The notes: a model not told the origin generated them from the letters alone. A stretch of DNA of 64,000 nucleotides from a virus (IMGVR_UViG_3300007734_000755:50838-114837); one strand, 5' to 3'. Positions 12,406 through 51,440 are shown, counted from the first letter of the stretch. Program-made: numbers and translations.

Positions 12406-12434
12406 AGTGTCTCATCTAGGGAGTTAGTTGTCAA
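12406..12434 (-). promoter_or_regulatory. sigma70-type promoter for the thyX...dnaE operon
   Basis: TTGACA-N17-GACACT preceded by TG. Confidence 0.55.
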
Positions 12435-13207
12435 CTGTCTTTTTCTATTCTAGATAGAAGTTGGTTTCTCTTCCAATGAAGTCCGATTGGATTTTCAACT
12501 TCTTTATTGACAAAATTATTTACTAACGAAGTTGCTTTTTTTATCGAGACAAAATTAATCCCGGCATCGGGAAGCTCCTTGGCATCATTGTTGATAACAA
12601 TGAAATTATCTTCTCCAAAATCACTCTTATATTTGTCCATGTTAGCGACACACATATGCCACAGATTTGAGGTGAGATCCGCAGGAAGAACACGATCTCT
12701 TTTTTCGTTCCTGTCAAGAGCCGTCTCCAGACTCGTATAGACAAAGATCATTGAGCAGTCATATCCTTGTCTTACTAGCTCCTTTCTTATTCCGTTGGTA
12801 ATTTTATAATCACCGCCCGTTCCATCAATAACAATTCCAATTCTTTCCTTGGAATATGAGTTAAGCAATCTATTCGTCTTATCCTTTGCTACAATTCTAG
12901 GTGAATTTGGCCCACGATTAAGCTTATGAAATTCATCTGGTGGGAGATCCGCAAGCTTAGAAGGGTCTACTCCGGCTTGTTTTAATAACATTGTATAAAC
13001 AGTATCGGAATTGGACATCTTTAATCCAAACCCGGTTAGGGTGTTCATGTTTCCCGACTTGTATCCAAATATTTTATTTGTAACATAGGACTTTCCAGAT
13101 CCAGGTCCCCCGGCCAAGAAAACAGCCTTGAGAGCCCCCTTATCATAAAGCCCCTCGGAAAGAACAGATGTTATCTCCTCTTGGATGAGTGTCAACAAAT
13201 TCTTCAC
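12431..13207 (-). CDS. P-loop kinase (zeta-toxin/AAA_33-like) with N-terminal LxE leader
   Basis: KAVFLAGGPGSGKS, IVIDGTG, ALDRNEKRDR lid. Confidence 0.75.
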   Translation of the reverse strand: MKNLLTLIQEEITSVLSEGLYDKGALKAVFLAGGPGSGKSYVTNKIFGYKSGNMNTLTGFGLKMSNSDTVYTMLLKQAGVDPSKLADLPPDEFHKLNRGPNSPRIVAKDKTNRLLNSYSKERIGIVIDGTGGDYKITNGIRKELVRQGYDCSMIFVYTSLETALDRNEKRDRVLPADLTSNLWHMCVANMDKYKSDFGEDNFIVINNDAKELPDAGINFVSIKKATSLVNNFVNKEVENPIGLHWKRNQLLSRIEKDS

Positions 13208-13455
13208 TTGTCCTCTTCTTCCTTTTTGATGCCTTGTGTGCCTGTGTACCCCTGTACCCCACCACCGGAGCAGGAGGACATCTCCTCAATGGTTTCTGAA
13301 TCTTCGGATTTCTCTTCTTCCTTCTCGGAAACAATGATTTCCTTGCCAGTTTTCTTGTCTATATTCTTCTTTGAGGACTTTTTTTTCTTGTCCTCCTTGA
13401 AGGTATTTTCAGCCAGAAACTGCTTCCATCTATTATTAATATCTCCATAATCCAT
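13204..13455 (-). CDS. small charged late protein
   Basis: GAGG SD; CTATTTA at 13474-13480. Confidence 0.6.
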   Translation of the reverse strand: MDYGDINNRWKQFLAENTFKEDKKKKSSKKNIDKKTGKEIIVSEKEEEKSEDSETIEEMSSCSGGGVQGYTGTQGIKKEEEDK

Positions 13456-13473
13456 AGTATTTTACCTCAACAA

Positions 13474-13480
13474 TAAATAG
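13474..13480 (-). promoter_or_regulatory. putative late promoter CTATTTA
   Basis: Recurrent motif, 19 nt upstream of ATG 13455. Confidence 0.55.
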
Positions 13481-13484
13481 AGTA

Positions 13485-14543
13485 TTATATAGTAATCTTG
13501 CCGATTCTATCGTCAACATTTATCTTAGTTACTCTATCAAACCCCTCTTCTTCGGTTGGCCTTTCATATCTATTCAACATTGATAAAATTACATCTCTTG
13601 AGATTTTCTTTGATTTTCCTTGAGTTCTCAACTGTTCGTCTCTATCCTGGTTTATTTTGATTAATTTTTCCATATTCGACTTATCAATCATGAAGTCAAC
13701 GGCCACTCTTGTAAATCTGTTTCTGTTAAATTTATTCAACCATTGTTTTCTTGTTTTGACATTCATGTTCGTCATATCAATAATGATATCCTTCTCGCTC
13801 TTAGCAGCCTCCTCGATATTTCGCTGAAGCATATTGCTAATACGTTTGTTTAGTTCTTCAATTTTTGGGTCATTTTTCCACATATCATTATATGTAAGTC
13901 CGTTTTCTTCCGCAACTCTATCAACAATGGCATCTCGAGATATAACAGTTGAACTGTTAAATTGCACATTATTTTTTATCCAAGTTGATTTTCCCACCCC
14001 AGGAGGGCCTATTAGGACAAAAAGCTTCTTCTTTTGTATGTCCTCTTGCCCCTCTATCATTGTATATGCCTCCGGAACATGAATAATTTTACATCCAAGG
14101 TTGTTATCGTTACAAAATTCCTTAAAAATAGGGAAATGTTCTTCGCGGTCATCATAAAACGTTATGTAATCAATATATGGGTTGTTAGACAGCAGACTTT
14201 TTACGTGTGCTAGCTTAGATTCGGCTGCTCCACCATCATCGGCAAGCCCAATATATGGAAAACCTAGTTCTTTCTGGGATAATAATTCCTTAACTCTATT
14301 GGAAAACAACTCTTTTCTACCAGTAAGCATAATAACGTAGCATTCTTTGTCCGAGAGATGTTCAAAAGCCCTTTCGCATATTTCATTATTCCACCATGAA
14401 CCATCGGGAACCGGAGGAACCAGTGGCTCCATAAGGGAGGCAGTGTTTCCCCACCATTTTCCTCTCCATTTGTTTGGTCTTCTGGGGCTTTTAAATAGGG
14501 TCCCATCAAAATCAAATATGACGAGGTGTTTTATAACGTTCAT
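13485..14543 (-). CDS. HAD phosphatase plus P-loop kinase fusion (polynucleotide kinase/phosphatase-like)
   Basis: IFDFDGTLF, LTGR, FYDDR (HAD); GPPGVGKST, ISRD, IIDMTN (kinase). True start is ATG 14543 in an ATGA overlap with GGAGG SD, not 14783. Confidence 0.8.
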   Translation of the reverse strand: MNVIKHLVIFDFDGTLFKSPRRPNKWRGKWWGNTASLMEPLVPPVPDGSWWNNEICERAFEHLSDKECYVIMLTGRKELFSNRVKELLSQKELGFPYIGLADDGGAAESKLAHVKSLLSNNPYIDYITFYDDREEHFPIFKEFCNDNNLGCKIIHVPEAYTMIEGQEDIQKKKLFVLIGPPGVGKSTWIKNNVQFNSSTVISRDAIVDRVAEENGLTYNDMWKNDPKIEELNKRISNMLQRNIEEAAKSEKDIIIDMTNMNVKTRKQWLNKFNRNRFTRVAVDFMIDKSNMEKLIKINQDRDEQLRTQGKSKKISRDVILSMLNRYERPTEEEGFDRVTKINVDDRIGKITI

Positions 14544-14851
14544 ATGACCTCCGGTAATAAGGGTAATGGGCACCAGAGGTCTGGCGAGATCGGCGTATCC
14601 GTGCGGGGGTCGCGCATGGTGCCACCGACTTCGTAGGCGATACCGACACCGACCCAGCCGTCGCACCCGTACACGACATGCTGCCCCTCCGCTGGCCTCT
14701 CGTCTGCCAGCCTGCGCCAGCCTGCGGCGGCGACCTGTGCCCGCAGCGCCAGAGTCTCTGCGCCTGCGCGTGTTGGCATCCACCGTGGCTTTTGCACCTC
14801 AGCCAGCCGCTCCACGCGGTCGGCTCTAGCTAATATTTCGGTCGTAGTCAT
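14540..14851 (-). CDS. DUF551-like phage protein, high-GC foreign gene
   Basis: W..LADERP...W.PLP..P pattern; AAGGA SD; GC far above the flanks. Confidence 0.6.
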   Translation of the reverse strand: MTTTEILARADRVERLAEVQKPRWMPTRAGAETLALRAQVAAAGWRRLADERPAEGQHVVYGCDGWVGVGIAYEVGGTMRDPRTDTPISPDLWCPLPLLPEVI

Positions 14852-14862
14852 GATTTTATTCC

Positions 14863-15933
14863 TTAAAAAAATCTATCAATCATTTTGTAGCCTGATTTAT
14901 CATCAAAATCAGACAGTGCCTTAACTGTTTCCTGGAATTCATCGCAAACATATGGGTTATCCGAAAAGTAAGTTACAGCTCCTATTTTAGAGGCTGCTTT
15001 GCTTATCCATCTCTGGAAATCTTCTCTATTCGAGAAGTTCAATAAATCTTTTTCATTATAAATTTTCCAGGTTCCAAGTTCCTCGAGGACATCAATCTTA
15101 TTTACTATTAATTTATTTACTCCGTTCATCTTAATGGCTTGAGCTACCAGATTCCAATTCATCCAATTACACTGTCTCTTCCTTCCAGTTGTTGCTCCGA
15201 ACTCTTTTCCTAGTTCTTGAACTTTTGAGAAGATCGGATCACTTGGTTGAAAGTCCTTTGCTCCAACATAAGTGTCGTATGCCTTTATAACTCCATAAAC
15301 ATCTCTCATGTGTTTATGGTTAAAACCATTTAGCATAAGAGAGCCAATTCCACAATGGCTAGAGGTAACATATGGGTAATCTCCCCAATCTATATCAAGC
15401 CCAAAGGCTTGAGCCCCCTCTGCCAAAACAGAGAATACGTCATTTCTGGTATAAAATTCACTATACATATCGATAAGATATTTTTGTAACAATGGCTCAG
15501 ATTCTGCTCTCCGACCAGTTCTAGCATATTTGTTACTATATGCTGGACCATTCCCGGTCTTAGTCGTACCAATCCTGGAGTCTTTTGAATCGCTTAGAAT
15601 GTCTTCTGGTGTAACGATATGTGCGTTCTTGGCTACAAAGACAAGTCCTTCGGTTTTTATTCCGTTATCATTTAAATATTTTATTTCTTCCAAAAATTTA
15701 TCCACATTAAGAACACAGCCGGGGCCTACTATTGATTTAATACCGTGAAATATCCCAACAGGGATAAGATGAGTTACAAACTTCTTATTGTTGTGATAAA
15801 TGGTATGTCCAGCATTTCCGCCGCCAGAAAACCTAATACAATGTGTATATGACTTCTTTCTTGCCCAATCGTAACAAATTTTTCCCTTGCCCTCATCTCC
15901 ATATTGCAACCCCAAAACTACATCAACCTTCAT
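14863..15933 (-). CDS. purA: adenylosuccinate synthetase (short form)
   Basis: QYGDEGKG, GGGNAGHT, IGTT.TG.GPAY, EGAQ, YPYVTSS, EFGATTGR, NKID; start revised to ATG 15933 (GAGG SD). Confidence 0.92.
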   Translation of the reverse strand: MKVDVVLGLQYGDEGKGKICYDWARKKSYTHCIRFSGGGNAGHTIYHNNKKFVTHLIPVGIFHGIKSIVGPGCVLNVDKFLEEIKYLNDNGIKTEGLVFVAKNAHIVTPEDILSDSKDSRIGTTKTGNGPAYSNKYARTGRRAESEPLLQKYLIDMYSEFYTRNDVFSVLAEGAQAFGLDIDWGDYPYVTSSHCGIGSLMLNGFNHKHMRDVYGVIKAYDTYVGAKDFQPSDPIFSKVQELGKEFGATTGRKRQCNWMNWNLVAQAIKMNGVNKLIVNKIDVLEELGTWKIYNEKDLLNFSNREDFQRWISKAASKIGAVTYFSDNPYVCDEFQETVKALSDFDDKSGYKMIDRFF

Positions 15934-15958
15934 GATACCTCTTGTCTGTGATATGAAC

Positions 15959-15987
15959 ACTGTACCTCGTCCCAAGAAGAAGGTCAA
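15959..15987 (-). promoter_or_regulatory. sigma70-type promoter for purA
   Basis: TTGACC-N17-TACAGT. Confidence 0.6.
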
Positions 15988-15998
15988 GTCCGTGTTGA

Positions 15999-16349
15999 TT
16001 AATCCCTATATTTTTTCCAAGCATGTTTCTTTCTTCTTATCAAATATAGAGGGTTGTTTTGATTGTCGTGCGCCTCTCTCTCAAACGGGGATTCAAGATA
16101 TGCTAATTTAGAATTTTTATATTCTATCAATCCATTTAAATAATAATAGACATACAATATAAAAAACATAAAGAACCAAAGTTCTCTTTGTTGTCTATAA
16201 TGAATCATTTCGTGACGCCAAATTTTTTCTGGTAACTTATCCCGGCAGAAAATAAATATTCCAAGTGAAATTGCATAAATTTCTATAGGAGCGATCTTTG
16301 ACAAGACAATAGGAACCTTAGAATTCTCTACGATAATAGGAAAATCCAT
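15999..16349 (-). CDS. small HExxH (zincin-like) membrane-associated protein
   Basis: RHEMIH..QQ, hydrophobic segment, PFEREA third-ligand motif; start at ATG 16349 after GGAGG. Confidence 0.65.
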   Translation of the reverse strand: MDFPIIVENSKVPIVLSKIAPIEIYAISLGIFIFCRDKLPEKIWRHEMIHYRQQRELWFFMFFILYVYYYLNGLIEYKNSKLAYLESPFEREAHDNQNNPLYLIRRKKHAWKKYRD

Positions 16350-16365
16350 CTTGGCCTCCAAAGAA

Positions 16366-16405
16366 GAAAAGAGCTGCTGAATTAAATAGTCCAGCAGCTC
16401 TTTTC
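16366..16405 (-). terminator. intrinsic terminator whose loop contains ACTATTTA
   Basis: 14 bp perfect inverted repeat GAAAAGAGCTGCTG/CAGCAGCTCTTTTC followed by a U-rich tract on the minus strand. Confidence 0.75.
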
Positions 16406-16426
16406 CAGGCCAATATACTTTGATTA

Positions 16427-16687
16427 TTAAAAGATTCTAACGTGTCCGACAGGACGAGTATCGAGTAGTTTTATCCACTCATCTCTGTTTAGAGGGCATC
16501 CATATGGACCCTGAAGCATTTCAACTGCAACATCACCGGCCCTTGGATCTTGTGAAATGCTACGTCTAACCGTAGCTTCCCATATCTTTTGAGAGGCTCT
16601 GTTTGCTGCCTCGTTTCCAAAGGCTTGTCTGAACTCATCTAGAGTTGCACAAGGGTCTGGTTGTGAGAGAAATTGTTCAACTGTCAT
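16427..16687 (-). CDS. hypothetical protein
   Basis: ORF with GAGG SD. Confidence 0.6.
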   Translation of the reverse strand: MTVEQFLSQPDPCATLDEFRQAFGNEAANRASQKIWEATVRRSISQDPRAGDVAVEMLQGPYGCPLNRDEWIKLLDTRPVGHVRIF

Positions 16688-16689
16688 GG

Positions 16690-16941
16690 TTACACCTCTT
16701 CTAAATATCCAACCATACCAGATGTTGGTACAATTGAGAATTGTTTACCCTGAAAATCAAACTTTTGGATCGTTGAGGTAACGACAACTGCTAGTGCGCC
16801 ATTGTCCTTCCCAGACAGAATCTTAACAACCATCAATTCTCCGGGCTTCTTAGCCCAGGCCATCATTAGTTCTGCTCCAGTGGTTGATTCTTCAACCACT
16901 TCGGACACCTCAATATAACCATTGATTGGGTTTAATTTCAT
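16690..16941 (-). CDS. GroES-like co-chaperonin (divergent)
   Basis: MKLNPINGYIEV start, mobile-loop position, ...GKQFSIV...MVGYL end. Confidence 0.55.
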   Translation of the reverse strand: MKLNPINGYIEVSEVVEESTTGAELMMAWAKKPGELMVVKILSGKDNGALAVVVTSTIQKFDFQGKQFSIVPTSGMVGYLEEV

Positions 16942-17180
16942 TCTTCTTCTCCTGGCATCATATCAAACATTTCTGTTAGTTGATCCATATCCTGGTTATC
17001 CTTGCGGAGTTTATATGCCTTTAGAGCCGTCTTAATTTCTTCCTTAGAAAGCCATCCATTTTCAATATAGGACTTTCTAAGATCTGTCTTTTGTTCTCTA
17101 TACGGCTTAATTGCGTCCTCTAGTGCTGCCACCGAGGTAACATAATCTACTACGTGTTGTTCCTTTGTCTTCTCGCTCAT
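16938..17180 (-). CDS. T4 DsbA/GapR-like dsDNA-binding protein
   Basis: Helical pattern LEDAIK..REQKTDL...GWLSKEEIK.AL...K. Confidence 0.45.
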   Translation of the reverse strand: MSEKTKEQHVVDYVTSVAALEDAIKPYREQKTDLRKSYIENGWLSKEEIKTALKAYKLRKDNQDMDQLTEMFDMMPGEEE

Positions 17181-17199
17181 TGTGCTCCTTTTTTGTTTA

Positions 17200-17451
17200 T
17201 TAGAATTCTATTTCTAGTTCTTCTTGAACCACTTCCGTGGTTGTTGACTTCCAGTTGAATACCCGGAAGTCTCTTGCGTCTACATCATAGACCGTTTCGG
17301 ACCCGATGGCAAGGACCCTTTTTTTGTTTTCCTTATCCTCCGTCAGCCCTATTTTTGTCTTTTGTTCAATTGACATCTCTGATATTTTCAGAAATCTCAT
17401 TTTCCTGACTTCTCCGTTTTTCTTCCGGAATTCTCCGACTCTTACCAGCAT
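17200..17451 (-). CDS. SH3/WYL-like (DUF2693-like) protein
   Basis: F.KKNGEVR.M ... VYDVD..DFRVF. Confidence 0.6.
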   Translation of the reverse strand: MLVRVGEFRKKNGEVRKMRFLKISEMSIEQKTKIGLTEDKENKKRVLAIGSETVYDVDARDFRVFNWKSTTTEVVQEELEIEF

Positions 17452-17460
17452 TTTTTCCTC

Positions 17461-17706
17461 CTATCCAATCATTCCACTCTTGTGGATTACGTGTATAATG
17501 TTGTCTGTACGTCTAAACTCAAAACTTCTCCATTCGGAGTCCGTCTCTTCTCTGCCCAAAGAGGACAACGCGGCCAGCCTATAGCTCTCAAGTATGGCGT
17601 TACACCTCATTATCTCATGAGCCTCTTCTTCGCTCACTCTAAACGAAATGATGTGTTCGTCTTGTACACAATTACTGTGTGTACTTGTTATATTTATAAT
17701 TTCCAT
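17461..17706 (-). CDS. hypothetical protein
   Basis: GGAGG SD downstream of a strong promoter. Confidence 0.55.
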   Translation of the reverse strand: MEIINITSTHSNCVQDEHIISFRVSEEEAHEIMRCNAILESYRLAALSSLGREETDSEWRSFEFRRTDNIIHVIHKSGMIG

Positions 17707-17726
17707 ATTTGCCTCCGACAGGAGAC

Positions 17727-17755
17727 AGTATACTAGGGATAAATTATCTTGTCTA
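17727..17755 (-). promoter_or_regulatory. sigma70-type promoter
   Basis: TAGACA-N17-TATACT. Confidence 0.7.
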
Positions 17756-17776
17756 CTGCTAGAAAAAACTTATTCT

Positions 17777-18010
17777 TTATGACGCTTTTTGTGCAGCGTT
17801 GTAATCTGGGTCTTCCAGGCGAAAGACTCTCTTTTCTAATCTTTCAACTCTCTTTTCGATTTTTTCCACTTGCTCAAATTTTACAAGTAGTTTTTCTACC
17901 GAAAGTCTAATTGATGTTATTTCATTGTGAAGTTTCCACGATACCCCGATCAGAGTAAAGACTATTGTTAAGGCCATTCCAGCGAATGCAAGCCAATTAT
18001 CAACGCTCAT
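17777..18010 (-). CDS. single-TM coiled-coil late protein (holin-like candidate)
   Basis: N-terminal TM helix, RVERLE coiled coil, ACTATTTA at 18033-18040. Confidence 0.5.
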   Translation of the reverse strand: MSVDNWLAFAGMALTIVFTLIGVSWKLHNEITSIRLSVEKLLVKFEQVEKIEKRVERLEKRVFRLEDPDYNAAQKAS

Positions 18011-18032
18011 AATAATCTCCTAGTTACTAGAA

Positions 18033-18040
18033 TAAATAGT
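18033..18040 (-). promoter_or_regulatory. putative late promoter ACTATTTA
   Basis: Recurrent motif, 23 nt upstream of ATG 18010. Confidence 0.6.
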
Positions 18041-18051
18041 AATCTGCGTAG

Positions 18052-18603
18052 CTAACTGCCTTTCCCAACAACTCTGAAAATTGTATTATTGTTGTCTTGT
18101 GGCTCCCATATAGTCCATATAAAATCCATCGTCGGAGAGGATTTAGAATGTTTTTCTCCGCCAAACTGCGGTCTCCAGTTTAGCGCCAAGATCTTTGCGG
18201 GCGGATATTTTTCAAATATCTTAGTTCTTGATTTGGCGTGCCAAAAAGTAGACTTTGTTAACATTGCGACATAAGAACAATTATCAAGAGACTTTATAAT
18301 AAAGGCCTCGGCTAAGCTAAATGGAGGATTTGTTATAATCCCGTCGCACTTAAATTTTCTCGATGATAAATCAACTGTTAAGAAGTCATCCCCAGTTTCA
18401 ATGTCAGAACTCTTTACCTCATCAAAGTACGACGTAAGAACCTTCGCCATTGCGCCATCACCGCAGGCAGGCTCTAAAATAATAACAGATTTAGGCCAAT
18501 CAATATTGTCCAATAGAACTTTCGTTACTTCTGCTGGAGTCGGATAGAAGTCCCTTTCGTTCCTCGTTCCGTTTCCGCCTATAATGTTTGAAGAGTCTAT
18601 CAC
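18052..18603 (-). CDS. orphan DNA amino-methyltransferase (N6-adenine type)
   Basis: DFYPTP, LEPACGDG, ITNPPF. Confidence 0.85.
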   Translation of the reverse strand: MIDSSNIIGGNGTRNERDFYPTPAEVTKVLLDNIDWPKSVIILEPACGDGAMAKVLTSYFDEVKSSDIETGDDFLTVDLSSRKFKCDGIITNPPFSLAEAFIIKSLDNCSYVAMLTKSTFWHAKSRTKIFEKYPPAKILALNWRPQFGGEKHSKSSPTMDFIWTIWEPQDNNNTIFRVVGKGS

Positions 18604-20456: not shown

Positions 20457-20484
20457 TAAAACCCCTGTTGTATGGTGTTCGTGT

Positions 20485-20514
20485 AGTATAGCGCGGGATG
20501 TGTTAGGTTGTCAA
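20485..20514 (-). promoter_or_regulatory. sigma70-type promoter for nrdJ
   Basis: TTGACA-N18-TATACT. Confidence 0.8.
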
Positions 20515-20523
20515 CTAGGACAG

Positions 20524-21096
20524 TTATATTTTCTGTAGGAGAGATTTCAGAGACTTAAGAAGCGTCTCCTCAATTTTCTCTCTTGGGGCAAAACTGCCCT
20601 TGGGCCTTGGAAGACGAGTTGGCGCGTCCTTAATGGTAGAATCTAAACTATTATCTAGGGAACCAGAGGGGACAACCTCTCTTTCTGGCTTCGTGGCGGC
20701 ACTTAGCTTGTTCTCGGAATCAACCGTCTTTGCAAAGGCATCTCTTCTGGCATTTGCCTTGGCGACAACTTTTGTAAAGATAGGAAGATTTCCCATTACT
20801 TCTTCCTTGGTGCAATTCTTCTTTGTAACCTTGCTTATAGCAGCAAGAGTCTTTGGACCAAGATATCCGTCCGGCTTATTCTTAGTACCGTTTTCTCCGG
20901 TAACATTATATCCCATTTTGATTAGGTCAGATTGTAGTTGTCCAATCGGGCTATTCTCAATTCGGCTTGAATAGTGTTCTGCTCCCTTTGAAGCAAGTTG
21001 TCCTGCGCCGGGTCCAAGTTTCCTACCGGCGTCCTGTTCACTTAGGACCTTCTTGATCTCTTCCATAATAATCTTTCTTAAGAAACTTTGTTGCAT
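20524..21096 (-). CDS. peptidoglycan-binding-domain protein with N-terminal LxE leader
   Basis: IGQLQSDLIKMGY...PDGYLGPKTLAAI (PG_binding_1 pattern). Confidence 0.7.
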   Translation of the reverse strand: MQQSFLRKIIMEEIKKVLSEQDAGRKLGPGAGQLASKGAEHYSSRIENSPIGQLQSDLIKMGYNVTGENGTKNKPDGYLGPKTLAAISKVTKKNCTKEEVMGNLPIFTKVVAKANARRDAFAKTVDSENKLSAATKPEREVVPSGSLDNSLDSTIKDAPTRLPRPKGSFAPREKIEETLLKSLKSLLQKI

Positions 21097-21118
21097 ATAG
21101 AATATCTCCTGTGTTTTA

Positions 21119-21126
21119 TAAATAGT
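21119..21126 (-). promoter_or_regulatory. putative late promoter ACTATTTA
   Basis: Recurrent motif, 23 nt upstream of ATG 21096. Confidence 0.6.
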
Positions 21127-21132
21127 TTGATT

Positions 21133-22494: not shown

Positions 22495-22502
22495 TTGTTT
22501 CC

Positions 22503-24600: not shown

Positions 24601-24619
24601 TTTTTAACTCCTAATAGGT

Positions 24620-25506: not shown

Positions 25507-25522
25507 TTTTATTCACTCCTGT

Positions 25523-36458: not shown

Positions 36459-36471
36459 TTATATTCTCCTA

Positions 36472-39366: not shown

Positions 39367-39397
39367 CTAACGAGTCTCCTATGATTCTAACTCTTAG

Positions 39398-39405
39398 TAA
39401 ATAGT
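39398..39405 (-). promoter_or_regulatory. putative late promoter ACTATTTA
   Basis: Recurrent motif, 32 nt upstream of the sheath ATG. Confidence 0.6.
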
Positions 39406-39421
39406 TTGGGTAAGATGAAAA

Positions 39422-40267: not shown

Positions 40268-40269
40268 TG

Positions 40270-41490
40270 TTATCCTCTTCTATATATGATTCTGATTGTC
40301 CTTCCTTTCCTCCCTATTGATTCTGTCATGCCCCTCTGCTTCTTAGCCTGTTCCCACCGCTCTTTTGTTGGATAACCTATTCCATATAAATGATATAATG
40401 GTTCGTGTTCATTTCCAAACACATCAGTAAATGATTTTGTATAAACCACAGCTGGGCCGTCTGTTCTATGAATTTGCCCATTTAGATACCACACCTCTAT
40501 TCCGTTGCTAAGTATGTCTGCTGGTCCATCGCGTCTATCAAGACGCCCATTCAGAGTCCACTTCTTATTTCCCCTTGTTTCAGTGTACGTTCTTCCATCT
40601 CCTAGGTTTATGTGTTTATATTCATTTGTTTGGCTTATTGTATTCTTGGGTAATTTATCCGATAACTTCTTAACTATTTCGTTTAAACGGAAGAACAGAT
40701 GACTTTCTTCGAGATCATCATCTTCCTTATCCTTGAACTGGCTCTCCTCTCCATCATAGTGAAATTGATATTTTTCTTCTGGGTTTTTCTTTGAGATGAA
40801 GATGATCAATGGTTTTTCCCTGGAGTGATATTTTTCATAATATTGCAGTCCAGGAGCTGCCGTACACCACCTTGTACCCTTCCCCAGCTGTATTGCTGCT
40901 GCTTTATTTTCTGGTATAAAAATTTCCCAGTTCTCATCCTCATAGATTTTGTTGATTATCGCATTTTTTTCTGCCTTCTTTTGTTTATATTCTTCATAGG
41001 CTGGCATTGCATCATCAACAATTTTAACGAATTCATCTGTTGTCTTTATTGAATATATATCCTGTTTGGCTAATATTCTGCCGATTCCCTGTTCCTTGAT
41101 TTGATAGAAGGTTTCTAGTGGACGGCTTAGTATAATATAAAATACCACATCTTTTTCATTAACGACACTAGACAGAAAAACGCTTATAAGCCAATTGAGG
41201 GCTTCTGCTCGATTTGAAGGAGAAATATCGTCTGGAATGGCGCTTTTTATCATTTCTTCCATTCCCTCGGTGCTATATTTTGCGTTCAGAGAGTCTTCTG
41301 CTATTTCTTCCTTTGTCATACCCATTCTTATAGATTTTTCATCAGATACGAATCTAGCGAAATATTTTATAGAGTTTCTCATAACCTCTTCGCACTTTGA
41401 CTTAAATGCCTTAGACTTGAATCTTGGGAGGACTTGTTCCATCTTTATTTCATTAAGAATTCTTCTATTTTCAAATATAATTCTTATCAT
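40270..41490 (-). CDS. hypothetical protein with GTRWCTA domain and HRxDGPA repeats
   Basis: AAIQLGKGTRWCTA...EKYQFH; LDRRDGPA and IHRTDGPA repeats. Confidence 0.65.
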   Translation of the reverse strand: MIRIIFENRRILNEIKMEQVLPRFKSKAFKSKCEEVMRNSIKYFARFVSDEKSIRMGMTKEEIAEDSLNAKYSTEGMEEMIKSAIPDDISPSNRAEALNWLISVFLSSVVNEKDVVFYIILSRPLETFYQIKEQGIGRILAKQDIYSIKTTDEFVKIVDDAMPAYEEYKQKKAEKNAIINKIYEDENWEIFIPENKAAAIQLGKGTRWCTAAPGLQYYEKYHSREKPLIIFISKKNPEEKYQFHYDGEESQFKDKEDDDLEESHLFFRLNEIVKKLSDKLPKNTISQTNEYKHINLGDGRTYTETRGNKKWTLNGRLDRRDGPADILSNGIEVWYLNGQIHRTDGPAVVYTKSFTDVFGNEHEPLYHLYGIGYPTKERWEQAKKQRGMTESIGRKGRTIRIIYRRG

Positions 41491-41978
41491 TGGGCTGAAA
41501 AATTTCCTTTTCTAGATTTAATGCAGGTTGCCACTATTTCTACCTTATTCTCATCCTGTCCATAGGGAGAAATTGGTTCCTTTAGTTTGACAATTTCAAA
41601 CAGGATTTGGTTGTGAAGAATAAAATCTCCCTCTCTAACATATAGGTTTTGGTCCTCTGTTAACCTTCTCTTGTGGAAGAACACTTCAATATTTCGTTCC
41701 TTCTCTAGACCAAACTTATCAACTCTCGTCTCGACACCACTTGGCTTAACAAAGGCATAAACTCTTATGGGAGGGAGGAAATTTTTCTGAATGGCTTCAC
41801 CATATAGAGGATGATATTCAGTGGTGTTTGTATCAATTGCGTAATAAAGGATAGCCTGGCCAACAACTCTTTCTGCAACCTCTGTAACGACTTGTTTATT
41901 AAAGTCCCTCTCTGGCTGGTTAATAAACAGCGGAGCGGGAGGAGCGGCGGGTTGTGTAAATTGGTTTATTTTTGGCAT
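41487..41978 (-). CDS. neck protein (gp14-like)
   Basis: LYGEA..K.F, KFGL, EGDFI; position. Confidence 0.7.
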   Translation of the reverse strand: MPKINQFTQPAAPPAPLFINQPERDFNKQVVTEVAERVVGQAILYYAIDTNTTEYHPLYGEAIQKNFLPPIRVYAFVKPSGVETRVDKFGLEKERNIEVFFHKRRLTEDQNLYVREGDFILHNQILFEIVKLKEPISPYGQDENKVEIVATCIKSRKGNFSAQ

Positions 41979-41988
41979 TGTTTAAATT

Positions 41989-43227: not shown

Positions 43228-43247
43228 TTACTATTTCTCCGCACATA

Positions 43248-43254
43248 TAAATAG
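43248..43254 (-). promoter_or_regulatory. putative late promoter CTATTTA
   Basis: Recurrent motif, 21 nt upstream of ATG 43227. Confidence 0.6.
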
Positions 43255-43288
43255 CCTTGTTAATGATAAACGGCAAAATAACACATTG

Positions 43289-45355: not shown

Positions 45356-45388
45356 AGTAGTTCTCCGTCTAAGTAACTACTATACCAC

Positions 45389-45436
45389 AAATAGAAACCC
45401 CCTGGTAAAATTTCTTCTAACAAGGGGCTTCTATTT
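45389..45436. terminator. imperfect hairpin / terminator overlapping an extended -10 (TGGTATAGT, 45379-45387)
   Basis: AAATAGAAACCCC...GGGGCTTCTATTT. Confidence 0.5.
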
Positions 45437-45451
45437 TTATCGGTTGTTTAA

Positions 45452-45886
45452 TTATACTTCCTGTTCATATTGCGCTACTACGTCTTCTATTTCTGATTTA
45501 GAATTTCTGACAAGAAGAATACACGCATACTCGTTATCCGCCCCGAGTTCAGCATTATCAAAGGGATGCACAGCGCAATAAAGATGTACTTTATTACCGG
45601 TTGAATTCTTTGCCGCTCTCCTTACAATGTCGCCGCCAGATTCGTCATAAATCTGTTGGAGCGAGGTCTCTGGATCTGATACGGTTAAACCTAGTAATTT
45701 CACAAATTGTCTTGGTGTATATATTTTATCGTCATAATCTATTCCTAATGGAATTTTAGATTCATCTTCGTCGTCTTCTGAGTTGTCCTCTGGCTCGTCC
45801 TCAAAGCTCTCAAAGTCGCTTTGTTCTCTTAATATCTTTTTTATTTCCCGAAGGACCATTTTCTTTAAAATCAAACCATTATTCAT
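45452..45886 (-). CDS. hypothetical late protein with N-terminal LxE leader
   Basis: LKKMVLREIKKILREQ; ACTAATTA at 45906-45913. Confidence 0.6.
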   Translation of the reverse strand: MNNGLILKKMVLREIKKILREQSDFESFEDEPEDNSEDDEDESKIPLGIDYDDKIYTPRQFVKLLGLTVSDPETSLQQIYDESGGDIVRRAAKNSTGNKVHLYCAVHPFDNAELGADNEYACILLVRNSKSEIEDVVAQYEQEV

Positions 45887-45924
45887 ATCGGATTCTCCTG
45901 TGTTATAATTAGTATATCAAATAC

Positions 45925-45964
45925 GCAAAGACCCTCGTTGAATCTCTCCAACGAGGGTCTTTGC
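45925..45964 (-). terminator. terminator after the major capsid gene
   Basis: 16 bp perfect inverted repeat GCAAAGACCCTCGTTG/CAACGAGGGTCTTTGC. Confidence 0.8.
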
Positions 45965-45983
45965 TTAACTATTCTCTAGCTGT

Positions 45984-47768
45984 TTAGCCGATTAGGTCTT
46001 GTACAACTACTAGGCCGAAAAAGTCTGGGCGTACCATTTTCTTCGCGTATCTTGTCATTAGACCCTTTCTTGGAACGAAATCTTCAGTTCCAAAGATGGT
46101 TGGGGTGATCATCAGCGGGACGTATGGAGCGTAGACATAGCCACTCTCTAGGAACGCCTTGCCTCTACGACCAACTAGGATTAGATTTCTTGGGAAGTAT
46201 GGATCAACATACACATCCCATTTCTTGCTAATCGAGCCAGCCTTAACCGCACCAATTGAACCACCCTTGACGTCTTCCATCGAGATATCAGCTCTGAAGC
46301 CAGAGGTGAATTCTAGAATGTTCGCAACTTCTGGAGAGGTTACGAGGAAGTTTGCACCACCACGAAGAGTCTTTCTGTGAATCTGAGCAGACACATCGTT
46401 GATTGTCTCAACAAGGGTCTCGTACCACATGCTAACATTTCCGGTGAAGTCAGGAGGGGCACCAACAGAGGTTACGGCAGCGCCGGTGTCTCTATTGAGG
46501 AACTTACCTGGTCTACGGCTCCAGTATTTAGTTGCTGCTGTCGCACCCTTGACTAGATCGTTGAGGATTTCCTGATCGATTTCTAGAGCAACATGCTCAG
46601 AAAGGATACTGGTTAGCTCAACTTCTGCATCGAGGTTGTGATAGGCATTTAGGTCCTGGCCGAGTTCCGGTGACCACTTAGCCTTGAGCTTCTTGGTTTG
46701 TGCCGTAACTGCAATGCTGTCAACCTTGATGTCCAATTCTGGAATTGAGGCATTACCATCAGAGTTAATGAGGTTGCCCTGTGAACCACCAGCCGCTCCT
46801 TCGTCAAACAGAGTTGTAGCGACTACTGATCCAAGCGCCCCACCGTTCGCCCAAACATCTCTAATGATCCACGAAGCTTTATCGGCAGGGACCTTTACGG
46901 TTCCCGCTGCGGAGCCAAGATCATCATTCGCCGTTTTAGACAAGACAACGATATATTTCGTAGAGTCCGCTGGATCAATCTGTGTTAGTCTTCTAACTGT
47001 TGAGACAGTTTTGGTTGTGAGAACAGTCCCAGAGACCTGGATAACATTCAGTCCAATAAGATTGTTTGTATCAAAGTTCGTGAAATCGGCAGCAGTAAAT
47101 GTCATAGCTGCGTAATAGTTTGTACTATCGCTTAGTACATCAAGATCGTACTTTATGACTGCTAGAGCGCCTTCCTCTGTCAGTTCAGTTCCTTTCTTTT
47201 GGCCATCAAGTTGAGTTATGGTGAACCCCTTAAAAGAAGTTACTTCTGTAATAGCAGTGCTGACTGCCGTTGAAGAAGCGGAAGGACTAGAAAACCCATT
47301 GTTTAGGGCGTAAAAGCTATTTTCCGCGTTAATTCCAGTTAGGCTTACACCACCAGTAATCTCGTGGGCTACCTTACCACCACCATAGATAGATGAGCCA
47401 GCGACAGCGTTTCCGACTGTTGAGCTCCCATTATAGGTAAAGTCCATGAAGAAGATAAGGCCAGATGGAAGGCTCATTGGTTGAACTGCAACCAACTCAT
47501 TTGCAATGAGTCCACCAAACACTCTTCTAACAATTGGGAATGCTACAGCGGCAAAGCCCTCAACGTCACCAGCGGACATTGTGGAAGCCTCACGCAATAG
47601 TTCCTTTGCCTGATTCTCTAGAAGACGAGCCATTGTCGTCTTATTTTGTTCTCTATCGATTCCTTCAAGTAGACCTGTCTTTTCCCATTTCTTTGAGAGA
47701 GCAGCGCCTTCACGAAGGAGATTTCTTTCTACAATATTTTCTGTTAATCTTTCAACTATACTTGCCAT
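45984..47768 (-). CDS. major capsid protein (T4 gp23-like)
   Basis: A.LLENQ, VQPMSLPSGLIF, KLKAKWSPEL.QDL.A.H.LDAE.EL, YAPYVPL, GLMTRYA. Confidence 0.97.
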   Translation of the reverse strand: MASIVERLTENIVERNLLREGAALSKKWEKTGLLEGIDREQNKTTMARLLENQAKELLREASTMSAGDVEGFAAVAFPIVRRVFGGLIANELVAVQPMSLPSGLIFFMDFTYNGSSTVGNAVAGSSIYGGGKVAHEITGGVSLTGINAENSFYALNNGFSSPSASSTAVSTAITEVTSFKGFTITQLDGQKKGTELTEEGALAVIKYDLDVLSDSTNYYAAMTFTAADFTNFDTNNLIGLNVIQVSGTVLTTKTVSTVRRLTQIDPADSTKYIVVLSKTANDDLGSAAGTVKVPADKASWIIRDVWANGGALGSVVATTLFDEGAAGGSQGNLINSDGNASIPELDIKVDSIAVTAQTKKLKAKWSPELGQDLNAYHNLDAEVELTSILSEHVALEIDQEILNDLVKGATAATKYWSRRPGKFLNRDTGAAVTSVGAPPDFTGNVSMWYETLVETINDVSAQIHRKTLRGGANFLVTSPEVANILEFTSGFRADISMEDVKGGSIGAVKAGSISKKWDVYVDPYFPRNLILVGRRGKAFLESGYVYAPYVPLMITPTIFGTEDFVPRKGLMTRYAKKMVRPDFFGLVVVQDLIG

Positions 47769-47806
47769 AATGTTTTATCTCCTTTGATAAAAGTTAAATG
47801 GAATAT

Positions 47807-49534
47807 TTAAATTCCCGCTAATCGTTTCATACGTTCAGCAAAATCATCCTTCGGTTTGTCTTCCGCTCGGGAAGCTCTTAGAAGGATTGAAGAAGAACGT
47901 CTTTCAACTGCCTCGCTCAATGATTTGGGTCCACTGTTACTTGTTGCGTCCCGCATTGTGCTCTGTAATGTCTCGTAAAGCAATTTTACTTCTTCTGTCG
48001 TCTTAGCACCATTGATGGACTCTACAATCTTGTTTTTCTGTCGCTCATTTAGGGAGCCGTCCATTAATGCCTTATTTATATATAGTAATCTATGATTCAA
48101 AAACCTCGATTCGTTAACATTTTTTTCATATCTAGAAATCTTCGTTAATAATCTTTGATTTTCCTTGGTTACATTTTCTATGAGAGCAATTGACTCTCCG
48201 AGTCCAGCCTTGAGTTTCTTGTTTGTTTCCTCAAGAGTTTCAACTTCCTGTTCCATTTCCTGGATTTCTGCCTGTAGATTCGCAAGTTCTACGTCGTGTT
48301 CTGCTTCCTCTGGGTTTACACCAGTCCACTTAGAACGAGGTCCAGATCTCTTCCAATCAAGCTTAATGGTTTCATCAATCTTGTCCTTGGAAGCAGCTGG
48401 GGCCTTCTTATCGGCGGAGGGCTTCTTTGTCTTGTTGTCTAGTTCCTTCACCATATCAATAATATACTTAAGTTCAGCTCCAAGTCCAGGATGTTTCTTC
48501 TCAACCTTGCCCTGCATGTTTATTAATTTCTGCATAACAACCGCAAGAGACTGTTTCTTGGCAGCTTCGTTGAGTTCATCCTCTTGTAGGATATCATCGT
48601 CGTCAAAATCTTCCTCGTCATCATCTATATCATCAAAATCATCGTCCGAATCAAAGTCATCATCCTCAACGCTGGTCTCATCTCCCAGGTCGGTGCCGTC
48701 CTTGACTGGTTCTGAATCGAAGTCTATTTCAAAATTTTCTTCGCCTTCTGAGTCTTCTTCCTCACCAAAATCGTCGTCCATGCCGTCGTCCAACTCTTCA
48801 TCAGAGTCGAAATCGTCGTCTAGGTCTTCCTCTTCCTCGTCAACTCCAACAACTTTGTCTCCTCTATATTCATCTAGCCCCTCAATAGAATCGTCATCGT
48901 CGTCATACCCCTCAAGGTCCGGGCACGCACAACTTTCAACATCATTGCCACACTCCTCGCAGAACTCGTCCTCTCCAGCAAGATCCGTATCTTCCTTGCC
49001 GTATGGAAAATCATCGCTACCAATCTCTTCCCATTCATCATCGTCTGATGCCCGGTTGTTTTCCTTAAGTCTTGGTCTCTTCATTAATTGTCTCAACTCC
49101 TGAAGCGCCATCTGATCAACAGATTCCTTCTTGTTGTTTTCAAATCCAAACTCCGAGAGAGAATCTAGGTCTATTTCCACAACTCCAGTTGGATATGCCT
49201 TATCATCAATAATTTCTCCGTCCTTAAAGGCATATTGTAGTTTCCCGAATAAATCCGACTTTGCATCCGAATCATCCTTGGCCTTCTCTGGATCTACAGG
49301 CTGCGCAGATGCAGTAGCGCCAGTTGCAGCCATTGGCATGGCCGGAGGCATCGCAGGAGCTGATGGATCTACAGGAGGAGCTGTTGGCGGTACTTCCGTT
49401 TGTTCTAGGAGTCTTTCTATTTCTCCCTCAAACTCCGCTGAATATTTCTCAACAATAGCTTGCTGAGCATTTCTTACAGCAGCTTCCTTCAGTTCCTTAG
49501 CGTCTAATATCGCCTGTTCTAACAATGAACTCAT
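47807..49534 (-). CDS. prohead core scaffold (gp22-like) with long acidic insert
   Basis: Coiled coils, many LxE sites, C-terminal RMKRLAGI; directly upstream of the capsid gene. Confidence 0.8.
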   Translation of the reverse strand: MSSLLEQAILDAKELKEAAVRNAQQAIVEKYSAEFEGEIERLLEQTEVPPTAPPVDPSAPAMPPAMPMAATGATASAQPVDPEKAKDDSDAKSDLFGKLQYAFKDGEIIDDKAYPTGVVEIDLDSLSEFGFENNKKESVDQMALQELRQLMKRPRLKENNRASDDDEWEEIGSDDFPYGKEDTDLAGEDEFCEECGNDVESCACPDLEGYDDDDDSIEGLDEYRGDKVVGVDEEEEDLDDDFDSDEELDDGMDDDFGEEEDSEGEENFEIDFDSEPVKDGTDLGDETSVEDDDFDSDDDFDDIDDDEEDFDDDDILQEDELNEAAKKQSLAVVMQKLINMQGKVEKKHPGLGAELKYIIDMVKELDNKTKKPSADKKAPAASKDKIDETIKLDWKRSGPRSKWTGVNPEEAEHDVELANLQAEIQEMEQEVETLEETNKKLKAGLGESIALIENVTKENQRLLTKISRYEKNVNESRFLNHRLLYINKALMDGSLNERQKNKIVESINGAKTTEEVKLLYETLQSTMRDATSNSGPKSLSEAVERRSSSILLRASRAEDKPKDDFAERMKRLAGI

Positions 49535-49555
49535 ATTTTTATCTCCGTTTAATAA

Positions 49556-49978
49556 TTATCCAACCCCAGATGATCCTGACCAGTTATTCCCAGTCGCAGA
49601 ACCCAACGGAGGCACCCCTCTTGGAATTGGAGTAAGCCCTGCAATTATAGAGGCAGAACTCTGGGCAGACGTGTCTGAAATTAGGTATAGGTCCTCTATC
49701 CTCCAATCTCCGGTATATGATGACCCTGATGAAACAACAAAATAGTTTGATGCAGAGCCAGAAACCCCCTTCGCACTGAACCCTACTCGGAATGGTACAG
49801 ATGATCCCACGTTTGCAATCGTTACAAACTTAGCAACATATGGGAATTGTATACACAGTGGAGTGGCAGATCCCGATGGGACTGTTATGGAAGCAGAGGC
49901 ATACGGAATTCCGCTCATTTGATATGAGCCTACCGACCCCAGGCCAGCATTGGGCCACTGCATTGTCTCGTTCGCCAT
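49556..49978 (-). CDS. putative virion protein
   Basis: Ser/Gly-rich; CTAATTA at 50000-50006. Confidence 0.55.
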   Translation of the reverse strand: MANETMQWPNAGLGSVGSYQMSGIPYASASITVPSGSATPLCIQFPYVAKFVTIANVGSSVPFRVGFSAKGVSGSASNYFVVSSGSSYTGDWRIEDLYLISDTSAQSSASIIAGLTPIPRGVPPLGSATGNNWSGSSGVG

Positions 49979-49998
49979 GTTCTATCTCCTGATCTCTA

Positions 49999-50265
49999 TT
50001 AATTAGATCGTGATTTCTTGTTTTTCTGTCTTTCTGTCGTATTATCTATCGACTCTCTTTCGGCTCTTAATTTTTGAAGAACTTTCTTCCGTCTGTGTCT
50101 TGCCTTAACCTTCTTTACCGAGGGTGGCTCGTAGAACTCTCTGTTCTTAACCTCCTCAACGATTCTTTCTTTCTTAACCTTGTTAAGAAATCTCTTAATA
50201 AGCTTCTCTGGATGTTCCCACTGCTTCGCCCTAACTTCTACGTTAAAATTTTTATTTGCCATCAC
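49999..50265 (-). CDS. rpsU: phage-encoded 30S ribosomal protein bS21
   Basis: V.V...E..EKLIKRF..KVKK..I..E...REFYEPPSVKK. Confidence 0.88.
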   Translation of the reverse strand: MMANKNFNVEVRAKQWEHPEKLIKRFLNKVKKERIVEEVKNREFYEPPSVKKVKARHRRKKVLQKLRAERESIDNTTERQKNKKSRSN

Positions 50266-50272
50266 TTCCTCT

Positions 50273-50638
50273 TTAAAACTTTTTCATTCCAGGAATCCTG
50301 GAAAGTATTGATAAATCTATACCCGGGTCGCCTTCCTCTTCCGAGGAAGCGTTAGATACGTCTGATATTGGAGTAATATTCTCAAAAATATTTGAATAAG
50401 CTCCATTGCCGATCGCATCCGCAAGCATCTTTCTCTTGTCGCTTATCGGAGTTGTCTTTTGTCTTGATTGAGACAAGACTCTATTTGTTGGCTGTCTATT
50501 CTCTGATACAACAGCCTTTTGTTGTCCTCTTAGAACTTCCCCAATTAGATTAGAAAGAAGTCCCTCCTCTAGGAGCATTTCGCTAAGACACTCCTTCACA
50601 ATTGGCTTCATTAGTTTCTTCATTTCTATCTTTGTCAT
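50273..50638 (-). CDS. hypothetical head-module protein
   Basis: MKKLMKPIVKECLSEMLLEE leader. Confidence 0.6.
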   Translation of the reverse strand: MTKIEMKKLMKPIVKECLSEMLLEEGLLSNLIGEVLRGQQKAVVSENRQPTNRVLSQSRQKTTPISDKRKMLADAIGNGAYSNIFENITPISDVSNASSEEEGDPGIDLSILSRIPGMKKF

Positions 50639-51234
50639 TAATCGCTCTCTAATAGAATATCATTCAATGCCCGATAAATTTTGTCAGCCTTTGTAAAAAT
50701 GTTTGGATCCTTATGTTCCTTAAAGAGGAAGGCTCCCGTTGTTGACGGCTCTGATACAAGATCAAAACAAATTAGTTGGAAGTCGTCTTGAACTACGGTT
50801 TCTCCACCCTGCTCCTTGGTGGAACCAAGACCTCGTGATGAAACTCCCAATTTAACTCCACCCCTAATAAGATCCTTTGCAATCTTTCCAGAGGGAGTAT
50901 CCAAGATTCTTAACTTTCCAATAACCTCATCGTTTTTCATTTCAATGAAGGAAACTAGATGAGAAGCGTTTTTTAACTCAATAACGCTAGAATCTGGGTG
51001 GTCCAGTTCTCCCAATGCTCTTTTCTCGGAAACAAGCTTTCTATAATTTTCTACTTCTCGTTGTAGGATCTTCTTGGGATATATTCTACCATTACCGTTC
51101 TTTGTATCGGCCTTCTGGAGCCTTCCGGCAAGGATAAGTTCCTGTCCAGAGGCATTCAGAGATCTTTCCTCCTCTGTTAATAGAGTTGAATCGTTTTCTA
51201 ATTCTAGGAATTCTGTTAGGATATATTTATTCAT
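50638..51234 (-). CDS. prohead protease (T4 gp21-like)
   Basis: NGNGRIYP, GELDHP, SH, TPSG, GVSSRG.GS, DLVSEPS. Confidence 0.95.
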   Translation of the reverse strand: MNKYILTEFLELENDSTLLTEEERSLNASGQELILAGRLQKADTKNGNGRIYPKKILQREVENYRKLVSEKRALGELDHPDSSVIELKNASHLVSFIEMKNDEVIGKLRILDTPSGKIAKDLIRGGVKLGVSSRGLGSTKEQGGETVVQDDFQLICFDLVSEPSTTGAFLFKEHKDPNIFTKADKIYRALNDILLESD

Positions 51235-51440
51235 TATTTTATCCCGCGAAGTAATCCAGTTAATCTAACCGCAGCTTCCTTTGTAGAAGCGAGTTGCCTT
51301 ATTCTTGAAACCTCAGCATCGAAGGACACCATGGCCGGATCATTTGTCAGGGGAGTGTCCTCGTTTAACTTCTTAAACCGTACAACCTCCTCCTCTATAA
51401 TTTGATTTAATCTTTCATATGAGATTTTCATAGTCAGCAT
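51234..51440 (-). CDS. small head-module protein
   Basis: KISYERLNQIIEEEV...LNE leader. Confidence 0.6.
   Translation of the reverse strand: MLTMKISYERLNQIIEEEVVRFKKLNEDTPLTNDPAMVSFDAEVSRIRQLASTKEAAVRLTGLLRGIK

Follow-up and report, generated by a model that had tools for sequence, protein, structure and literature searches.

The window analysed here comprises 64,000 nucleotides (IMGVR_UViG_3300007734_000755:50838-114837) and is the right-hand 64 kb of one 114,837-bp viral contig, almost all genes of which are carried by the minus strand; coordinates marked "genome" refer to the whole contig and all others to the window. A preliminary description had proposed that five otherwise unrelated open reading frames (ORFs) of this stretch begin with the same amphipathic helix ending in L-x-E, and that this helix directs diverse proteins into the prohead. 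The N-termini quoted there were all found on the minus strand, and we found that seven proteins of the genome carry the helix (referred to below as the class-1 leader), four encoded in the window and the remaining three at the left contig end, as follows.

12431–13207, minus strand: P-loop kinase of the Zeta_toxin/AAA_33 type; class-1 leader at residues 1–18 (13154–13207), ending in L-S-E and followed by an invariant G-x-x-D
20524–21096, minus strand: weakly PG_binding_1-like protein of 190 amino acids (aa); class-1 leader at residues 1–20 (21037–21096), ending in L-S-E
45452–45886, minus strand: 144-aa protein directly downstream of the capsid gene; class-1 leader at residues 1–21 (45824–45886), ending in L-R-E; CTAATTAT at about 45905–45912
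51234–51440, minus strand: small protein directly upstream of the protease gene, in the gp67/gp68 position; leader MKISYERLNQIIEEE...L-N-E at 51360–51431
genome 1562–1975, outside the window: PG_binding_1 protein (7e-14), class-1 carrier
genome 3044–3178, outside the window: class-1 carrier of 44 aa
genome 3207–3605, outside the window: class-1 carrier

A portable N-terminal leader

The class-1 leader is an amphipathic helix of about 18–22 residues with the consensus x-L-(R/K)-x-(I/M)-(I/V)-x-E-E-(I/L)-x-x-(V/I)-L-x-E, and all seven copies begin within six residues of the start codon. Every copy in the genome ends in L-x-E, the terminal triplets being LSE, LSE, LRE, LNE, LAE, LVE, and LTE. The start of the ORF at 51234–51440 is most likely its second ATG (51431), which gives MKISYERLNQIIEEE, because the closest relative begins at MKIS. 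Upstream of 20524–21096, CTATTTAT lies at about 21118–21125, and AGGAG precedes the first ATG; the only close relative found for this protein is 84% identical and has kept the leader. In the protein at 45452, an acidic tract resembling that of T4 gp67 follows the leader.

The proposal that the carriers are otherwise unrelated held for the kinase and for the 45452, 51234, and genome 3207 proteins, whose cargos are without similarity to one another, and failed for 20524, whose cargo is a weak paralogue of that of genome 1562–1975 (PG_binding_1 type). Likewise, four of the five ORFs originally named (the kinase, 20524, 45452, and 51234) do share the helix, whereas the fifth has to be set apart.

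50273–50638, minus strand: conserved head-module protein of 121 aa adjoining the protease; own N-terminus with (L/I)-x-E sites

Since 32 relatives hold an orthologue of this protein with the same N-terminus (MKKxELKKxxKPxxKEC...), what is conserved is a gene family rather than a portable tag, and we rejected 50273 as a carrier.

The similarity among the leaders was analyzed by comparing the N-terminal 32 residues of 162 minus-strand ORFs, taken from the whole genome, all against all and without gaps; the leader pairs came next in rank after one true paralogue family (small MORN-like HRDNDLPA proteins). Pair scores were 46 for 20524 versus 45452, 45 and 43 for these two versus genome 3207, 37–39 for genome 3044, and 33 for the kinase versus 20524. 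In addition, a profile built from leaders of other phages only (the independent model) was scored on the six-frame translation of this genome. Its four top hits were all N-terminal, namely genome 1562–1975 (12.5 bits), 20524 (11.5 bits), 51234 (7.6 bits), and the kinase (5.4 bits); 50273, with only 3.6 bits, genome 3207, and genome 3044 came next, within the top ten, and the maxima for 20 shuffled proteomes were 2.1–7.6 bits. The same leader residues are encoded by different codons in different copies, synonymous codons varying at most positions, which indicates selection on the peptide; a DNA-level repeat or a promoter cassette as the source of the similarity was therefore rejected.

The leader is widespread in uncultured phages. 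A degenerate DNA pattern for MK.TK.QLK.IIKEE matched at least 120 IMG/VR stretches, often with 2–4 copies in successive small genes, and in close relatives the leader with the clade consensus, MK(I/L/V)(T/S)KxQLKxIIKEE(L/I)xx(V/L)LxE, opens several neighbouring genes. Residues 16–22, which were unconstrained by the search, are still conserved (L/I at 16, V/L/I at 19, L/M/I at 20, and E at 22). Among the IMG/VR matches listed, 67 of 119 leaders have an (L/I/V/M)-x-E whose Glu is residue 21 or 22, Gly/Glu/Asp/Pro-rich sequence following, and the 110 complete cargos behind the leader fall into 90 BLAST clusters, in agreement with the portability proposed earlier. When a profile of 42 leaders was run against 1.84 billion proteins, 10,973 representative proteins (clusters at 50% identity) were retrieved at E ≤ 0.001. 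A leader copy is located at residue 15 or before in 147 of the best 150 of these 10,973 matches; the best 150 are mostly proteins with 2–4 leader copies, some of the copies being internal and lacking Met, which points to polyproteins. Five of the database proteins, with one copy at residue 1 and the others internal, look like strings of several leader–cargo units. Large genomes contain 4–23 class-1 leader genes each, and one 289-kb relative has an array of at least 15 consecutive leader genes. No Pfam family matches the class-1 leader, and PHROGs gave only weak matches to families of unknown function (phrog_134 and phrog_7338), of which phrog_134 led nowhere. The core string QLKQIIKEE was found in no paper of the literature searched, and the search for capsid-targeting sequences (CTSs) and T4-like phages brought up only work on T4, SPN3US/phiKZ, and P1. 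We conclude that the class-1 tag exists, is under peptide-level selection, is essentially N-terminal, and is portable across unrelated cargo.

The CTANTTA element to which the leader genes had been linked is also real. It is strongly strand-biased (39 sense versus 4 antisense copies) and lies 25–35 nt upstream of 20524, 45452, genome 3207, and the ORF at 13204 described below, as well as ahead of structural genes; this bias and this position fit a late promoter.

Class-2 leaders and the tagged kinase

The ORFs at 40270 and 13204 had been regarded as shorter versions of the same helix. They belong instead to a second, T4-CTS-like class of shorter leaders of the MKLLLENWRKYLNE type (class 2), in which M-(K/R)-x-L-(L/F)-E-(S/N)-(W/F)-R-x-(Y/F) opens four more ORFs of the genome.

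40270–41490, minus strand: 406-aa protein of the structural region; class-2-type leader at residues 1–14 (41449–41490), I-I-F-E-N-R-R-I-L-N-E
13204–13455, minus strand: 83-aa highly charged protein; T4-CTS-like N-R-W-K-Q-F-L-A-E at residues 8–16; CTATTTAT about 18–25 nt upstream, at 13473–13480
genome 41723–42760: RNase_T-type exonuclease, class-2 carrier
genome 42763–43161: class-2 carrier
genome 47780–48718: class-2 carrier
genome 1–90, minus strand: class-2 carrier running off the left contig end, M-K-K-I-L-R-E-W-K-H-Y-L-N-E

The assignment of 40270 to class 2 rests on a relative, whose homologous protein (34% identity over 185 aa) starts with MKLLLESWRQYLNE. The 13204 protein fits the class more loosely than 40270; its ORF overlaps the start of the kinase gene, with which it is co-transcribed, and in its leader, as in T4 MKTYQEFIAE (PMC9026906), P7 and P4 are aromatic, P3 is aliphatic, and P1 is Glu. 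A search with the class-2 pattern L-E-x-W-R-x-Y-L-N-E, in which no start codon was included, gave 90 matches, and in 84 of them Met stands exactly four residues upstream, placing MKLLLENWRKYLNE at residue 1. The class-2 cargos are diverse and include HAD-like and P-loop proteins. The T4 CTS signature (aromatic residues at 4 and 7, Ile/Leu at 8, and Glu at 10) is present in class 2 (W-x-x-Y-L-x-E), in 13204 (W-K-Q-F-L-A-E), and in some kinase homologues (MKTFQELQE and F-x-Q-F-I-A-E). Indeed, the aromatic P7 and P4, aliphatic P3, and Glu P1 of class 2 are the positions found important in mutagenesis of the T4 CTS (PMC9026906). A gene for a 522-aa GroEL-like chaperonin, judged by its N-terminal sequence alone, lies amid the class-2-tagged genes (genome 45755–47323, minus strand).

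The tagged kinase (12431–13207) matches Pfam Zeta_toxin at 3.3e-8 (33.6 bits versus a cut-off of 22.3) over part of the domain only. In its AlphaFold2 model, the mean predicted local distance difference test (pLDDT) value is 90.9, and the prediction is confident except for residues 1–20, where a leader helix (residues 2–16, pLDDT 54–63) is joined to the core by a coil. The nearest folds are the zeta/PezT toxins (template-modelling score of about 0.5, root-mean-square deviation above 12 Å), adenylate and polynucleotide kinases scoring similarly, and no cognate antitoxin gene for a zeta-like kinase was seen; the modelled fold is that of a generic P-loop kinase.

The kinase family has 4,898 homologues. 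In about 116 of the best 120 of these, (L/I/V/M)-x-E directly precedes G(V/I/L)xD and the P-loop, while the peptide upstream is variable. It may be class-1-like (MKLSQLKRIIKEEIANVMQE), have 9–12 residues (MRLTDLLNE, MKTFQELQE, and MILKSFDQFIAE), or be tandem, with a long extension that begins, at residue 1, with a class-1 leader and has another L-x-E ahead of the kinase. Of the short forms, MKTFQELQE and MILKSFDQFIAE bear a striking resemblance to MKTYQEFIAE, the T4 CTS. Thus, one cargo family bears different leader types in different phage lineages, as is expected if a tag must match the assembly machinery of each phage, and this again bears out the idea of a portable tag. No other genes with a short kinase leader were found within 10 kb of 63 kinase loci, so that lineage-specific sets of leaders were not demonstrated in this way. 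Cultured carriers of the kinase are T4-type phages, namely HTVC008M (MIPFILKE|GLYDPG), Melnitz, the jumbo phage Atu_ph07, and RsoM2USA.

In the record of Agrobacterium phage Atu_ph07, positions 2263–4599 encode a 778-aa protein with an unannotated N-terminal domain of about 250 aa, V-T-E|G, and then the kinase domain. This protein starts with M-K-W-N-D-L-N-E, and a neighbouring 490-aa protein with M-R-W-E-Q-L-N-E. In the window, the region of the tagged kinase is flanked on the minus strand by genes for a DnaE/PHP-type DNA polymerase (3662–7075), a ThyX-like protein (11731–12384), and an adenylosuccinate-synthetase-like protein (14863–15987), which were recognized by N-terminal motifs only.

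Head module, protease, and capsid propeptide

The right-hand part of the window contains genes in a T4-like order: terminase (58821–60404), gp20-like portal (56781–58811), several genes, the 68-aa ORF at 51234–51440, and the protease, followed by the 121-aa ORF, an S21 ribosomal-protein gene, a 575-aa scaffold-like protein, the capsid protein, and the 144-aa ORF. Three of these bear on the leaders.

50638–51234, minus strand: prohead protease, Peptidase_S77 (T4 gp21); Pfam 4.2e-24, 85.6 bits versus a cut-off of 27; phrog_207, 3e-51
47807–49534, minus strand: scaffold-like protein of 575 aa, coiled-coil, in the gp22 position; Pfam match of coiled-coil type; 19 (L/I)-x-E sites
45984–47768, minus strand: gp23-type major capsid protein; predicted propeptide at residues 1–60 (47589–47768), with L-R-E before A-S-T-M

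The identification of 50638–51234 as the prohead protease was confirmed by Pfam, phrog_207, and conserved motifs, all indicating a genuine S77 enzyme of the gp21 type. With T4 gp21 it shares 34% identity, its ELDHP aligning with ELNHP of T4 (His85) and its GVSSRGLGS being identical (Ser140), where His85 and Ser140 are the residues that we take to be catalytic in T4 gp21. The protease itself contains I-L-T-E and L-L-T-E near its N-terminus and I-L-L-E|S-D two residues from its C-terminus, which recalls the autoprocessing of gp21. The scaffold-like gene lies between the protease and capsid genes, the same position as in T4 and immuto; we infer a scaffold role for its product, which is likely to be both the docking partner of the leaders and a substrate of the protease. 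A phage-encoded ribosomal protein S21 (Pfam Ribosomal_S21, 1.8e-8) is also encoded between the protease and the scaffold-like gene (49999–50265, minus strand), and Microcystis phage Mel-JY01 has an annotated RpsU at the equivalent relative position.

In the capsid protein, L58-R59-E60|A aligns to the cleavage site LTE|AEIGG of T4 gp23, and L-(R/K)-E|(A/S/T) is found at the propeptide boundary in all 71 of 71 clade homologues. The class-1 leader therefore ends in a motif that also marks the propeptide boundary of the capsid protein. By tblastn, the best cultured relatives of this gp23-like protein are those of Flavobacterium phage immuto, Microcystis phage Mel-JY01, and Rhodothermus phage RM378, with 40–47% identity over the aligned parts; in global alignments, the identity is 42% to immuto and 28% to T4 gp23. 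IMG/VR holds hundreds of uncultured relatives with capsid-protein identities of 54–70%. The source phage is an uncultured T4-like phage of a distant clade.

The leaders are associated with such head genes also in other phages. Clade terminase, gp20-like portal, or S77 protease genes are present in 51 of 80 class-1 loci, and 62 of the 80 share some homologue with this genome when all its proteins are used as queries, most of the others being short. The leader genes adjoin the protease, as does 51234, or form arrays a few kb upstream of the terminase; the left-end cluster of this genome (1562–3605) is also upstream of the terminase if the contig is circularly permuted. Peptidase_S77 is encoded by 10 of 10 large leader-bearing records (class 1 or 2; 172–289 kb; eight estimated to be at least 90% complete), a count that stands without a base rate among large IMG/VR contigs. 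The tag is thus tied to T4-like head modules and to S77-encoding genomes.

No terminal repeats of the contig were found. The ORFs left open at its ends (genome 1–90 and window 62470–63999, the latter 5'-open) are one base out of frame with each other, and the contig may be a slightly incomplete circular permutation. The small MORN-like paralogues mentioned above, at least 15 in number and of about 60–110 aa, are encoded at window 10661–11722 (minus strand) and genome 16850–32717, in the early region; they have a MORN-like look with repeated W-x-x-N-G-x-L-H-R-D-N-D-L-P-A.

Probable capsid targeting, rival explanations, and known systems

In T4, gp21 cuts after (L/I)-x-E, and the internal proteins carry N-terminal propeptides of 10–19 residues, the CTSs, which give affinity for the core (PMC9026906, PMC3012670). 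The first ten residues of IPIII are enough to package foreign proteins; residues 4 and 7 of the CTS serve targeting and residues 8 and 10 processing, and T4-like phages are believed to owe to the CTS their ability to package varied proteins (PMC9026906, PMC3012670). We consider it probable, at roughly 60%, that the class-1 and class-2 leaders are capsid-targeting propeptides of this kind. Late in infection, the tagged proteins would be made from CTANTTA-type late promoters, and the leader helix would dock them onto the scaffold core of the assembling prohead. The S77 protease (50638–51234) would then cut after the terminal (L/I/V)-x-E, setting the cargo free inside the head, and at least some of it would leave with the DNA. 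The capsid-targeting proposal of the preliminary description is thus partly supported, namely in the portability of the tag, its link to head genes, and the protease motif, and it is by analogy with T4 that we infer docking and loading into the prohead, cleavage by the protease, retention, and ejection into the next host. A signal peptide is absent from the PG-binding cargos, and ejection from the capsid would be one possible way for them to reach the cell wall.

A broader proposal, to which we would give slightly less than even odds, is that uncultured T4-like phages of marine and fresh waters use a few readable tags (class 1, MKITKxQLKQIIKEEL..LxE; class 2, MKLLLENWRKYLNE) to stock the capsid in advance with a large, fast-evolving arsenal and inject it with their DNA. 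It would comprise tens of proteins per genome, thousands of families, and multi-leader polyproteins cut by the head protease, and may include kinases, cell-wall-binding modules, exonucleases, and phosphatases.

The explanation closest to capsid targeting is that the helix is a module by which prohead-core or scaffold-accessory proteins are built into the core, to be degraded and expelled later like T4 gp22, gp67, and gp68, and not a tag of delivered cargo. Many tagged genes are indeed small, acidic, or of low complexity and stand beside protease and scaffold genes, the acidic tract of 45452 is like that of T4 gp67, and the multi-copy leader polyproteins look like multivalent core components. 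Folded enzymes and binding domains are also tagged, however (the kinase, PG_binding_1, RNase_T-type exonuclease, HAD-like, and P-loop proteins), which is hard to square with disposable scaffold material, and we regard this explanation as unlikely. It overlaps with capsid targeting, because T4 uses one mechanism for both retained and expelled proteins (PMC9026906). Improbable to about the same degree is a function unrelated to the capsid, be it an oligomerisation or partner helix (for a phage chaperonin or host factor), a stability or degradation signal, or a 5' coding sequence for the initiation of late-gene translation. The amphipathic helix looks generic, its DNA is A/T-rich with some codon preferences, the genome encodes a GroEL-like protein, internal leader copies exist, and the tie between tag and virions is drawn from T4. 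On the other hand, the residues are fixed even where their synonymous codons vary, the T4 CTS positions of mapped function recur in class 2 (PMC9026906), and none of these functions predicts the terminal (L/I/V)-x-E, the co-occurrence with S77 in large records, or the clustering with head modules. Chance resemblance or ordinary paralogy of a few genes is very improbable. Short helical peptides rich in K, E, L, and I are easily alike, and 20524, genome 1562–1975, and probably genome 3044 share PG-binding-type cargo; such an origin was largely refuted by the 90 cargo clusters behind one leader, the mutual dissimilarity of the kinase, 45452, 51234, and genome 3207 cargos, the scores of the independent model above those of shuffled proteomes, and the 10,973 profile matches.

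Several observations weigh against capsid targeting itself. Class 1 lacks the key residues of the T4 CTS and, having a different consensus, is not its sequence homologue. Only 67 of the 119 IMG/VR leaders end in the common register, and 27 have no (L/I/V/M)-x-E within residues 16–30. Many database proteins hold internal leader copies, and if cleavage took place behind each copy and nowhere else, the cargo ahead of it would retain a leader at its C-terminus. In the kinase family, E18 and G19 are nearly invariant or invariant and could be conserved by the fold rather than by cleavage; the kinase, sitting among nucleotide-metabolism genes, could be a plain cytoplasmic enzyme. A tblastn search of cultured phages with a 25-residue class-1 leader gave no match, and an 18-column profile found nothing convincing in immuto, HTVC008M, RM378, Mel-JY01, and T4, the prefilter being insensitive for such a short model; by eye, one N-terminus of immuto reads A-Y-I-E-N-I-I-K-E-I-L-S-E.

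If the tags work as in T4, the proteins packaged by thousands of uncultured T4-like phages, and possibly injected by them, would be catalogued with one motif search. Such a search would also point to new anti-defence or host-takeover enzymes, such as the zeta-like kinase family (about 4,900 members), and would yield natural pairs of leader and protease with which foreign proteins could be loaded into phage heads. If the arsenal proposal is true, metagenomic sequence could directly reveal the proteome that these phages inject.

The T4 CTS is known for three internal proteins and Alt, which are first-strike weapons against host defences; replacing its terminal Glu by Asp prevents processing and leaves targeting intact. 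In these proteins, the CTSs of IPI, IPII, and IPIII and the propeptide of Alt are removed by gp21 (Mullaney and Black 1996, as reviewed in PMC9026906 and PMC3012670). The leaders described here resemble this system in being short N-terminal peptides that end in (L/I)-x-E on unrelated proteins, in the presence of a gp21-type S77 protease, and in a capsid propeptide with the same end motif; class 2 and 13204 moreover match the key positions of MKTYQEFIAE, and some kinase homologues have MKTFQELQE or MILKSFDQFIAE. They differ in that class 1, known here from sequence alone, is longer (18–22 residues), has a very strongly conserved consensus of its own, and occurs on far more families (4–23 genes per genome and more than 10,000 clusters), with enzymes as cargo and internal repeats in polyproteins. 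The ip loci of T-even phages (PMC3012670; PMC9026906) are likewise arrays of small late or head-region genes with only the leader in common and highly variable cargo, whereas the arrays found here are larger (the 289-kb relative with at least 15 consecutive genes) and come from a distant uncultured clade, the capsid protein of which shares 28% identity with T4 gp23.

In phiKZ-like phages, many head-internal proteins are cut after x-x-Glu, possibly at several sites, by a gp21-related protease (phiKZ gp175 and SPN3US gp245; PMC5694885, PMC10052503, PMC9026906). These phages differ in the S/A-x-E motif with a small P3, in having no single conserved portable leader, and in their lineage. The cargo-loading peptide of encapsulins is also short and portable and directs diverse enzymes inside an HK97-fold shell; it is usually C-terminal and uncleaved, attaches to the shell protein itself, and is unconnected with DNA packaging or ejection. 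Its likeness to the leader tags is an analogy. Collectively, the concept of capsid targeting is already known from T4, and what is new here is a distinct, longer, and extremely conserved class-1 tag, a second tag with the T4 key positions, a scale that includes enzyme cargo, polyprotein forms, and the occurrence in a distant uncultured clade.

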